Positions 488-62,937 of a stretch of 64,000 bases of DNA are shown one piece after another. The stretch spans positions 1 through 64,000 of the forward strand of contig CAUYUJ010000173.1 in NCBI GenBank assembly GCA_963575745.1, in the 5' to 3' direction. The stretch comes from Prorocentrum cordatum (taxonomy: Eukaryota). Under the pieces are notes generated by a model. That model was not told the DNA's origin. It did no database searches and worked only from the letters and a program-made list of their open reading frames with translations. Both the position numbers and the translations under genes were made by a program. Position 1 is the first letter of the stretch, and each line of letters begins with the position of its first letter.

Positions 488-537
488 CTAGGGCCTCGGC
501 GACCCCCTGCATCAGCTTGTAAAGCGGCGGGATGCTC
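488..537 (-). CDS. Channel gene exon E11: S4-S5 linker, SIPPLYKLMQGVAEAL
   Basis: CAG|G acceptor in phase 2 completes the Arg codon left by E10; typical S4-S5 linker; AG|GC donor at 488 (alternative 495). This frame is not in the ORF track. Confidence 0.85.
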
Positions 538-676
538 CTGCGGCGGCCGCGGCGGGGCGGCGCTGCCGCCGCTGCCTCCCGACGGCAAGAGCCGAGGCGC
601 TCGGCGTGGCCGACAGGCGGGCCGTGGCAGGCCCAGGGGGGGGCCGCATACATTCCCCACAGGGCCGCACAAGGGA

Positions 677-1500
677 TCATCATCATCAGCAGCAGCAGCA
701 GCAATCGTCATCGTCGTCGTCATCGTCACAGATGCTGTCGTCATCGGTATCGTCATCGCCACCACCATCATCAGCATCATCATCATCATCATCAGCGACA
801 TCATCATAATCATGTTCATCAACTTGGGCATCGACGACAACGCCATGCTCGTCATCGCCCTCTGCAGCATCAACAGCATCGTCATGCTCGACGTCAACAT
901 CATCTTCATCATGAGGAGCATCATCATCATCATCATCATCATCATCAGCATCATCATCATCATCATCATCATCATCATCATCATCATCATCATCATCATC
1001 ATCATCATCATCATCATCATCATCATCATCTTCATCACCATCACCATCACCAGAATCGTCATCATCGTCATCCTCATCGTCATCGACGTCGTCGTTACCA
1101 TCATCACCACCTCCACCACCATCATCATCATCACCATCACCAGAATCAATTATCATCAGCAGCAGGGGTCAATATCGCAAACACCATCATCGCCATCATC
1201 ATTGTCATCATCGTCGTCATGATTATCGTTATCAGCATCGCCGCTACTTCTTATCATCAGAATCACTCACCTCCTCACGCGCAGCCGCCCACTCCTCCTC
1301 CTCCTCCTCCTCCTCATCATCATCATCATCACCATCACCATCACCATCACCATCGCCATCATCATCATCATCATCATCATCATCATCATCATCATCATCA
1401 TCATCATCATTCTCCTCATCCTGCTCCGCCTCCCCCTTCTCCTGCTCCACCTCCTTCTCCTCCTCCTCCTGCTCCTCCTCCTCCCTCCTCCCTCCTCGCT
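677..1500. repeat. Degenerate (CAT)n / (CCT)n microsatellite
   Basis: Direct. Confidence 0.95.
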
Positions 1501-1701
1501 CCCTCTCAAACTTATCATCCTCCTCACCACCATCTGCATCAACGGCAACACACAGCCAACGGCTGCTGCCACCGGCATACAGGGCCCGCAACCCTGGGCG
1601 GAGGAGCAGTCCGCTCCGACCGCTCCGCCGAAGAGGGCCCAGGCTCCTGAAGGCGGAGCAGCCGGCTCCGTCATTGGCCGCCGCCGGGTGTGCGTTTCTG
1701 G

Positions 1702-1863
1702 CTACCTACCAGACCACCCCAACCCAACCCGAAGACCCCAATTTCGGGTTGGGGGGGGGTACGGGTTCCATATGTGTTTTCTCGATGTTCCCCGACTGCC
1801 CCCCACTGGAAATGGAGGTAAATTTGAGGCCTTCGGGTTGGGTTGGGGTGGTTTGGTGGGTGG
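1702..1863. mobile_element. MITE with about 30-bp TIRs and an 11-bp TSD (Mutator-like); related copy at about 28695-28850
   Basis: CCACCCCAACCCAACCCGAAG and its reverse complement at the ends; flanks TGCGTTTCTGG / TGCGTTTCGGG. Confidence 0.75.
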
Positions 1864-61114: not shown

Positions 61115-61199
61115 TATATATATATATATATATATATAGTATCATCATCCTTTTCCTCCCCCTCCTCCCTTCCCACCACCAAACATGTTTCATATCTCC

Positions 61200-62400
61200 T
61201 CCTCATCCTCCTCCTCCTCCTCCTCCTCCTCCTCCTCCTCCTCCTCCTACTCCTCCTCACCACCACCACCACCACCACCACCACCACCACCACCACCATC
61301 ATCATCATCATCATCATCATCATCATCATCATCATCATCAGCAGCATCAGCATCAGCATCAGCATCAGCATCAGCATCAGCATCAGCATCATCATCATCA
61401 TCATCATCATCATCATCATCATCCTCATCATCATCATCATCATCATCATCATCCTCATCATCCTCATCATCCTCAGCATCCTCATCATCATCATCATCAT
61501 CATCATCATCGTCATCAGCATCATCATCAGCATCATCATCAGCATCATCAGCAGCAGCATCATCAGCATCATCCTCATCACCATCATCATCATAATCATC
61601 ATCATCATCATCATCATCATCATCATCATCATCATCATCATCATCATCATCATCTTCTTCAGCATCATCAGCATCATCAGCAGCATCATCATCAGCAGCA
61701 TCATCATCATCAGCAACAGCAGCAGTATCATCACCATCAGCATCATCAGCATCATCATCAGCACCATCATCAGCATCAGCAGCAGCATCATCATCCTAGT
61801 CATCATCATCGTCATCAGCATCATCATAATCATCATCATGATCATATCCATCATCATCAGCGGCATCATCATAAACATCAGCTTCAGCATCAGCATCAAC
61901 ATAACCAGCATCAGCATCATCATCAGAATCGTCATCGCCGCCATCAGCATCATAATCATAGTCGGTAGAATCATCAACACCATCAGCATCATCATCAGCA
62001 GCATCATCATCGCCATCAGGACCAGCATCAGCATCATCATCATCATCATCGCCATCATCAGCATAATATTCATCATCAGCATCATCAGCGTAATAAACAT
62101 CAGCCGCACCAGCGTCAGCATCATCATCAGCGCTAGCAGCATCAGCAGCAGCAGTCATAGCATCAGCAGCAGCAGCATCATCAGCAGCATCATCATCATC
62201 AGCAGCATCCTCATAACCATCAGAATCAACATCATCATCATCAACAGCATCATCCTCATCATCCGCATCATCGTCATCGGCATCATCAGCATGGTCATCA
62301 TCATCGTCAGCATCATCATCAGCAGCAGCATCATCCTCATCAGCACCGTCATTCTCATCATCATCAGCATCATCATCAACAGCAGCATCATCAGCATCAT
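61200..62400. repeat. (CCT)n/(CAC)n/(CAT)n microsatellite
   Basis: Direct. Confidence 0.95.
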
Positions 62401-62885
62401 TTTATTCTTATTCATCAATACCCTCCTCCTCCTCCTCGTCACCGATCCTCCTTCTGCCCACTCCCCGTCCCCTAGTTCCTCCTCCCTCATCCCTCCTCCC
62501 CCCTACTATTCACTATCCTCATCATTGTTGTCCCTCTGAAAAATGACCAGCGGCACAAGTCGACACAGCGAGGGCCCTTGCTGTATTGTGCCTGGTGGCC
62601 CCTGGTCGGGCCCTCTGGGCATTGCAGACGGAGCGCTGGAAACACCCACATCCGCATCACTGTGTACACGCCAGGTCACTCCAAGGATTTCAACCAAACG
62701 AAAGAACCAATGAACGAAGGAGGGAAGCGGGGGGGGGGAAGGGAGAGGGATGAGAAAGCCGACGAACTGCTCAAGCAAGCAAGCGAGTGCGCACGAGCAG
62801 GCGGGCGAGAGAAGAAGAAGCGGGGTGTCAGTTTCGCGGGAGGAGCGAGACGACTGACTAAGACCCGATCAGGGGGCGCGGTGGC

Positions 62886-62937
62886 CTGCTTCTTCCTGTC
62901 CAGCGCCTCGAGCTCGTCTTCTACGGGCCTTCGTCGC
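62886..62937 (-). CDS. Channel gene exon E1 (first exon visible): RRRPVEDELEALDRKKQ, coiled-coil-like
   Basis: AG|G acceptor (alternative start 62928) and CAG|GC donor; joins E2 in frame to give a continuous amphipathic helix DELEALDRKKQ-DAMAELAAELERIKRL. Confidence 0.6.

Follow-up and report, generated by a model that had tools for sequence, protein, structure and literature searches.

The DNA analysed here, called the window below, comprises the 64,000 nucleotides at positions 1 to 64,000 of contig CAUYUJ010000173.1 from Prorocentrum cordatum (assembly GCA_963575745.1). It carries the central part of a dinoflagellate gene that probably encodes a subunit of a voltage-gated cation channel, with about ten transmembrane helices; in the encoded protein two voltage-sensor domains (VSD1 and VSD2, with helices S1 to S4 and S1' to S4') stand in direct tandem ahead of a single pore. 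An initial annotation, made from the letters alone, had proposed this tandem at 488..62937. A search with the exon that carries the junction between the sensors (exon 6) returned four proteins: P0001, a 682-residue protein derived from a transcript (a 2,589-nucleotide Logan contig) and 99% identical to the exon; P0002, also of 682 residues and 91% identical; P0003, a partial P. cordatum protein from the genome annotation, 77% identical; and P0004, a fragment of 176 residues. By exact k-mer mapping and junction scanning, residues 69-397 of P0001 were placed on 11 collinear exons of the minus strand that run from 62939 down to approximately 483, in agreement with the proposed extent, and a single residue (I215V) distinguishes exon 6 from P0001. 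The sequence landmarks of the two sensors were recovered on the same strand: the WNWMD motif at 35882-35896, the 19-residue S4-to-S1' segment quoted in the annotation at 35672-35728 and the WNYLD motif at 24534-24548. A stop-free frame at about 35555-36040 carries S3, S4 and the linker without a break. Within the window no k-mer of residues 1-68 or of the pore-side residues 398-682 mapped in order, so the 5' end and the exons for the pore, S6 and the EF-hands must lie outside it, with S5, the P-loop, S6 and the EF-hands beyond position 1, on the side where the pore had been suspected.

All 11 exons match P0001. Exon 1 (62886..62939, residues 69-86), an exact match with donor GC and acceptor AG, encodes part of a long N-terminal cytoplasmic helix, which ends in exon 2 (55537..55611, residues 86-111) together with a conserved PPGP motif before VSD1. 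The first sensor opens in exon 3 (46760..46830, residues 111-135) with the pre-S1 motif and S1, including the invariant N132, and continues through exon 4 (42616..42664, residues 136-151), which forms the S1-S2 loop, and exon 5 (41310..41357, residues 152-168), which forms S2 with Y162 and the invariant E165. Exon 6 (35673..35953, residues 168-262) completes S2 of VSD1, carries S3 and S4 together with the linker, and opens S1 of VSD2. The remainder of VSD2 is spread over exon 7 (28409..28496, residues 262-290; S1 and the S1'-S2' loop), exon 8 (24528..24632, residues 291-325; S2 and the start of S3, with WNYLD and the invariant D323), exon 9 (19128..19214, residues 326-354; S3 and the S3'-S4' loop) and exon 10 (11749..11822, residues 355-379; S4 with six basic residues). 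Exon 11 (483..537, residues 379-397), whose 3' end is approximate, forms the S4-S5 linker; the coding sequence within the window stops with it. Intron 8 carries at 24337-24368 a 32-nucleotide copy of the 3' end of exon 8, 91% identical and 188 nucleotides downstream, which gives rise to a second, out-of-frame WNYLD at 24346-24360. A 100-base gap of N letters (10958-11057) falls within intron 10 and touches no exon.

The gene is expressed and spliced as modelled. All sampled words of exon 6 were present in 20 sequencing runs from nine studies, four of the runs being recorded as polyA RNA-seq. Over 24400-42700 we compared four runs from four studies, two recorded as polyA RNA-seq (X1 and X7) and two guessed to be RNA (X3 and X9); the evidence consists of assembled contigs and not of raw reads, and it speaks to the presence of a joined form but not to how abundant that form is or where it ends. 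One contig per run joins 24528-24631, 28408-28493, 35670-35950 and 41307-41356, and the onward join from 41356 to 42615 is listed in all four as well; exons 4 to 8 are thus joined as modelled, in keeping with the splicing proposed initially. The printed pieces of the joining contigs show no differing letter against the window, and the loose contig end at 24528 continues into the sequence of exon 9. Exon 6 is spanned without a joint (35670-35950) and connects directly to exon 7, which indicates that it has no internal donor and that no pore exon lies between the sensors, as the annotation had argued from the open frame. The mature RNA therefore links S4 of VSD1 through the linker to S1 of VSD2, which does away with the grounds for rejection that the annotation itself had named.

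The ends of eight of the ten introns fit the pattern exon-G, G[C/A/T] ... AG, G-exon, with GC donors in three cases, GA in four and GT in one. The two introns that flank exon 8 (28408-24633 and 24527-19215, minus strand) do not have GY..AG ends: the first reads TC..GA or CC..AT and the second CA..TT. The joins at these introns nonetheless appear in the RNA contigs of all four runs. Short contigs of the same runs also lie inside introns 5 and 6 (32221-32291 joined to 33293-33467, 30510-31120 and 39064-40285). They are deeper than the channel exons, and their own joints pass over roughly 1,000 bases and carry a few additional letters where the two sides meet. The long open reading frames (ORFs) in these regions gave no Pfam match, and the contigs may represent repeats or another transcript.

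In P0001, which supplies the part of the protein that lies outside the window, a long N-terminal helix is followed by VSD1, the linker, VSD2, the S4-S5 linker, one S5-P-S6 module and an EF-hand pair, giving the subunit of about ten transmembrane helices that had been anticipated. The Pfam family Ion_trans (PF00520) matches P0001 at 113.5 bits against a cut-off of 25 and in two stretches, the better at 257-496. The EF-hand match at 524-547 falls just below its cut-off (24.0 versus 25.4 bits), while in P0002 it exceeds the Pfam cut-off with 27.5 bits; the acidic residues and glycine of the EF-hand loop follow the usual pattern in P0001, which suggests Ca2+ feedback. An AlphaFold2 model built from a family alignment of 76 sequences (mean predicted local distance difference test score (pLDDT) 84.3, predicted template modelling score (pTM) 0.66) places helices at 32-103 (the long N-terminal helix), 119-137 (S1), 148-177 (S2), 182-210 (S3) and 221-246 (S4), then a small linker helix at 250-253, followed by 255-277 (S1'), 283-311 (S2'), 317-348 (S3') and 357-379 (S4'). 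The S4-S5 linker and S5 are predicted as one helix (382-421), the P-helices at 432-461 and S6 from 467 onward, and a helix-strand pattern at about 537-603 fits an EF-hand pair. Both the profile search and the predicted structure, the checks suggested at the outset, therefore show two sensors and a pore module in one chain. In VIA-align, residues 248-505 fit the structure of a single repeat of CatSper1, Nav, Cav or the coccolithophore channel NaVEh, with Z scores of 12.5-14.6 and a root-mean-square deviation (rmsd) of 4-5 Å over 216-239 residues, and the top Foldseek match was 7x5v (E 2.5e-6).

Both sensors have the features expected of the superfamily, namely a basic residue at every third position of S4 and a charge-transfer centre in S2 and S3. 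S4 of VSD1 has seven basic residues (R224, R227, R230, R233, R236, K239 and R242) and S4 of VSD2 has six (K364, R367, R370, R373, R376 and R379), the same numbers as first counted; the charge-transfer residues are Y162, E165 (S2) and D191 (S3) in VSD1, and Y299, D302 and D323 in VSD2. Across the 76 aligned sequences N132 in S1, E165 and D191 of VSD1 are invariant, and Y162, R230, R233 and R236 are at least 90% conserved. Arginine occupies position 224 in 38 of the 76, position 227 in 66, position 230 in 74, position 233 in 75 and position 236 in 72; position 239 is lysine in 60 and arginine in 11, and position 242 arginine in 35 and lysine in 27. In VSD2, N268, D323, R367 and R373 are invariant and E275 and D277 nearly so. 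The residue G109, before VSD1, is nearly invariant. The cytoplasmic linker between S4 of VSD1 and S1 of VSD2 is conserved and only 8-10 residues long, with the consensus D-L-S-W-T-E and with D248 and W251 retained in at least 90% of sequences. Mean pairwise identity is 0.384 for VSD1, 0.414 for VSD2 and 0.471 for the pore, as against 0.258 for the EF-hand region and 0.172 for the N-terminal helix. VSD1 is thus constrained about as strongly as VSD2, with its S4 charges and their counter-charges kept. When VSD1 alone was compared with chains of the Protein Data Bank by phmmer, it matched repeat I of Cav3.2 from S1 to S4 (E 1.1e-6). If VSD1 were no more than a scaffold, its gating charges should have been lost. 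They were kept throughout the radiation of the family, and by this main, though indirect, argument the sequences favour VSD1 as a working voltage sensor but cannot prove it.

The pore module of P0001, seen in both the Pfam coverage and the AlphaFold2 helices, has a P-loop region that opens with F-G-[ST]-V-P ... L-F and leads to a filter with the family consensus L-M-N-G-[DE] (LFKLMNGD), in which F450, M453 and N454 are invariant. An acidic residue is retained at the position of the filter glutamate; contributed by four subunits, it would form an acidic ring and hence a cation pore. From this arrangement the pore is probably cation-selective, for Ca2+ and/or Na+.

The same architecture was found in a large family. 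Residues 100-500, used as the query of a word-indexed search, returned 88 hits, and the majority of these span 96% or more of both sensors and the pore. A search of the ESM Atlas yielded generic Ion_trans/EF-hand clusters only, few of them labelled with a taxon. The named relatives come from Prorocentrum cordatum, Effrenium voratum, Symbiodinium pilosum, Symbiodinium necroappetens and Cladocopium goreaui, all of them dinoflagellates, a range that reflects the named records and is not an established limit. Among their records are 'scn4ab, partial [Symbiodinium pilosum]' and 'Voltage-dependent N-type calcium channel s...' (Cladocopium goreaui), the kind of automatic Cav/Nav fragment naming that the initial annotation had foreseen. 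An exhaustive search of 1.84 billion cluster representatives returned 10,071 hits at E <= 0.001, of which 263 reached E <= 1e-30. When a profile of residues 105-505 was run over 208 fetched proteins, 172 contained both sensors and the pore, 14 were partial and 22 started after VSD1. In 20 of these 22 the match begins within the first 22 residues, which marks them as truncated ORFs. Among the 208, only P0088 and P0089 have their own N-terminal part ahead of one sensor and just one Ion_trans stretch.

The two sensors resemble each other. In a search of the window, S3-S4 of VSD2 matched the S3-S4 exon of VSD1 with 31% identity (E 9.5e-7), and in the family consensus a shared pre-S1 motif, L-S-W-x-[DE]-G-x-x-F, precedes S1 of both, followed by parallel motifs in S1 (V-I-x-L-N-x-x-V-M-x-L-E), S2, S3 (W-N-[WY]-L-D) and S4. 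We built a tree from the VSD1 and VSD2 slices of every third of the 75 remaining family members (25 proteins, without P0001) together with P0088 and P0089. All 25 VSD1 slices fell on one side of a branch with a support of 99 in the Shimodaira-Hasegawa-like approximate likelihood-ratio test (SH-aLRT), and the sensors of P0088 and P0089 both fell on the VSD2 side. Several subgroups appear in the VSD1 half and again in the VSD2 half, among them P0026 with P0037 and the group of P0016, P0094 and P0097. This split with recurring subgroups fits one ancient duplication that gave VSD1 and VSD2, followed by joint descent. P0088 (662 residues, a single sensor, its own N-terminus and an L-M-T-G filter) nests within the VSD2 clade beside P0078 (SH-aLRT 97), which suggests that within the family VSD1 was lost secondarily or an alternative start is used. 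The origin of the family would then lie in an EukCatC-like single-domain channel whose module of pre-S1 motif and S1-S4 was duplicated once, before the family radiated.

P-loop channels with one P-loop per chain assemble four chains around each pore. With its one P-loop per chain, the present subunit would likewise need four chains per pore, and the resulting tetramer would carry eight sensors. VSD2 would be the canonical sensor, with the S4-S5 linker as its means of opening the S6 gate. The cytoplasmic end of VSD1 is 8-10 residues from S1', so the movement of its S4 would pass to VSD2, either via the short conserved linker or across an interface between VSD1 and VSD2. The signal from VSD1 could shift or stage the activation of VSD2, and the EF-hands could supply Ca2+ feedback. 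We consider it probable, as the best explanation of these data, that the gene encodes a VSD-VSD-pore cation-channel subunit in which VSD1 modulates the pore-coupled VSD2. A further-reaching proposal, which we put forward tentatively as something less than probable, is that the family is the first natural class of P-loop channels with two working sensors per subunit and eight per channel. In such channels VSD1 would move its own charge and gate through VSD2, activation would be staged or history-dependent, and cations would pass through the remodelled L-M-N-G-[DE] filter under Ca2+/EF-hand feedback.

Several points weigh against this interpretation. Ion conduction, selectivity, stoichiometry and the effect of VSD1 on gating are all properties that we infer. 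The pore of this copy of the gene lies outside the window and is known from a transcript record that differs at I215V. The T and W that belong to the T-x-E-x-W motif of Nav, Cav and BacNav-type channels are missing from the filter, a loss that makes the conduction properties uncertain. Foldseek and VIA-align returned matches to one sensor plus pore only, and no solved chain that matches both sensors in one rigid arrangement: VIA-align alignments that reach into VSD1 have an rmsd of 25-30 Å, and the AlphaFold2 monomer model leaves VSD1 unplaced relative to VSD2 and the pore. The tree was made by a quick method with SH-aLRT support only, on 25 of 75 members and with midpoint rooting; P0089 sits on a long branch, and 28 of the 49 inner branches lack resolution.

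Alternatively, VSD1 could be a structural or assembly module that acts like a fused auxiliary subunit, in folding, packing, trafficking or partner binding, and exerts no voltage control over the pore. It lacks an S4-S5 linker leading to its own pore, and the adjoining long N-terminal helix could serve assembly. TRP channels and repeat I of two-pore channels (TPCs) carry voltage-sensor-like domains that do not sense voltage, which offers a precedent for such a role. Non-sensing domains, however, usually lose their S4 charges, whereas five S4 arginines of VSD1 are kept in 66-75 of the 76 sequences, its S2 aromatic and acidic residues and its S3 acidic residue are invariant or nearly so, and its conservation nearly equals that of VSD2. 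We regard a purely structural VSD1 as unlikely. Of the two roles inferred for it initially, a second voltage input or an assembly module, the pattern of conservation favours the working sensor.

A different history would lead to the same present function: the family could descend from a two-repeat, TPC-like channel or from a four-repeat channel that lost its first pore module. The conserved S4-to-S1' linker could then be a remnant of that module, and the position of VSD1 in the tree, sister to all VSD2 and single-sensor sequences and not nested among them, would be compatible with such a descent. The linker is only 8-10 residues long, however, without any trace of S5-P-S6, and the pre-S1 motif was duplicated along with S1-S4. 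In addition, the pore and the C-terminal EF-hand resemble those of EukCatC-type single-domain channels such as P0089, and no intermediate form occurs among the 208 proteins. We find a descent by pore loss quite improbable next to the single duplication described above.

VSD1 might also provide a permeation path of its own, as an Hv1-like proton pathway or an omega-type cation leak, so that the protein would have two voltage-gated conductances. Isolated sensors such as Hv1 can conduct, and VSD1 is not tied to a pore module by an S4-S5 linker. Dinoflagellates use voltage-gated proton currents according to passages in two reports (PMC5298346, PMC3556693). The best match of VSD1 among solved chains, however, is a Cav3 sensor. 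Selectivity in Hv1 depends on an aspartate in S1; the conserved polar residue in S1 of VSD1, which may be its counterpart, is an asparagine (N132). Across the 76 sequences tryptophan is not among the four commonest residues at any of positions 224-242, unlike the RxWRxxR signature given for S4 of Hv1 in the relevant part of PMC4621752, and we hold a conducting VSD1 to be very unlikely. It is extremely improbable that the layout is an artefact of chimeric assembly, a merged gene model or a mis-spliced transcript: dinoflagellate genomes are repeat-rich, the window contains an N gap and the genome-annotation protein P0003 is partial, but the S4-to-S1' junction lies inside one genomic exon, the same joins recur in spliced contigs from four runs of four studies, and the layout recurs in 172 of 208 relatives drawn from many sources.

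The rest of the window yielded no other gene by Pfam, which was applied to 44 of the 179 long, non-low-complexity ORFs. The window is rich in GC, with a content between 0.47 and 0.67 per 2 kb, and on the plus strand C exceeds G in most 2-kb bins. Intron 5 contains long low-complexity tracts at 36068-37100 whose translation, according to frame, is poly-Gly, -Glu, -Pro, -Ser, -Arg or -Leu. Another stretch, at 41355-43027, includes overlapping ORFs that span intron 4 and exon 4; these ORFs matched DUF3671 below the cut-off and TFIIA just above it, and we presume that both matches reflect low complexity.

The VSD-VSD-pore layout, its splicing and its expression are thus direct observations, as is the large family that keeps both sensors and the pore. 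To our knowledge, characterised voltage-gated P-loop channels all pair one sensor with each pore module. How the movement of a sensor is transmitted is a central question of channel biophysics, and the two-sensor family offers a ready test of coupling from sensor to sensor; if staged activation is true, it would amount to a built-in computation on two voltage inputs. The family is a likely component of excitability in dinoflagellates, organisms that matter as bloom formers and as coral symbionts, and a possible source of new voltage-sensing modules for tools. Automatic labels of the 'Cav/Nav fragment' type conceal this distinct architecture.

In comparison with known systems, the two-sensor family belongs to the Ion_trans superfamily but arranges its domains in a new order. 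Cav and Nav channels contain the sensors closest to VSD1 in sequence among solved chains (repeats I and IV of Cav3.2), but they consist of four sensor-plus-pore repeats, as opposed to two sensors and one pore in 682 residues here. TPCs share the two sensors per chain and the two Pfam Ion_trans matches, and plant TPC1 also has EF-hands. Each TPC sensor, however, has its own pore and the channel is dimeric, whereas here a single P-loop with one S5/S6 pair follows the second sensor. Hv1 and the voltage-sensing phosphatases resemble VSD1 in having a sensor without a directly following pore module, and Ci-VSP aligns to VSD2 with a Z score of 12.3 (VIA-align); they differ in having no pore module at all, and across the 76 sequences VSD1 does not carry the S4 tryptophan signature of Hv1. 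BacNav-type channels such as NavAb, and NaVEh (EukCatB), are homotetramers with a T-L-E-S-W-type filter. They provide the best structural matches for VSD2 and the pore (residues 248-505; Z 12.5-12.8, rmsd about 4 Å), but they have one sensor per subunit and no extra sensor at the N-terminus.

In the full-text literature, where subscription journals are sparsely covered, we found no description of a sensor-sensor-pore channel, which does not prove that none has been published. The Pozdnyakov surveys, in the parts that bear on this question, deal with other channel classes (PMC5824947, PMC7576140). The closest described relatives, judged from the passages and the Data S2 sequences of Helliwell et al. 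(2019; PMC6509283), are the EukCatC channels, single-domain voltage-gated channels of dinoflagellates and other alveolates. The passages describing EukCatC mention no second sensor, and the alveolate sequences shown in Data S2 (Oxyrrhis, Chromera, Vitrella, Symbiodinium and Karenia) combine one S1-S4 with a filter of the form T-x-[ED]-x-W, with TLESW, TLEGW, TTEGW and TLEDW as examples. The same source counts more than 10 EukCats in Symbiodinium microadriaticum, a number that could silently include members of the two-sensor family. As far as these sources show, EukCatC and the two-sensor family have in common their presence in dinoflagellates, or alveolate origin, and an S4 arginine at every third position; EukCatC and P0089 further share with it the F-G-[ST]-V-P...L-F start of the P-loop, the acidic filter residue and the C-terminal EF-hand. 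They part in two respects: EukCatC has one sensor and six transmembrane helices, as against two complete S1-S4 domains before the pore and ten helices here, and the T-[LT]-[ED]-x-W filter of EukCatC and P0089 is replaced by L-M-N-G-[DE] in the two-sensor family.

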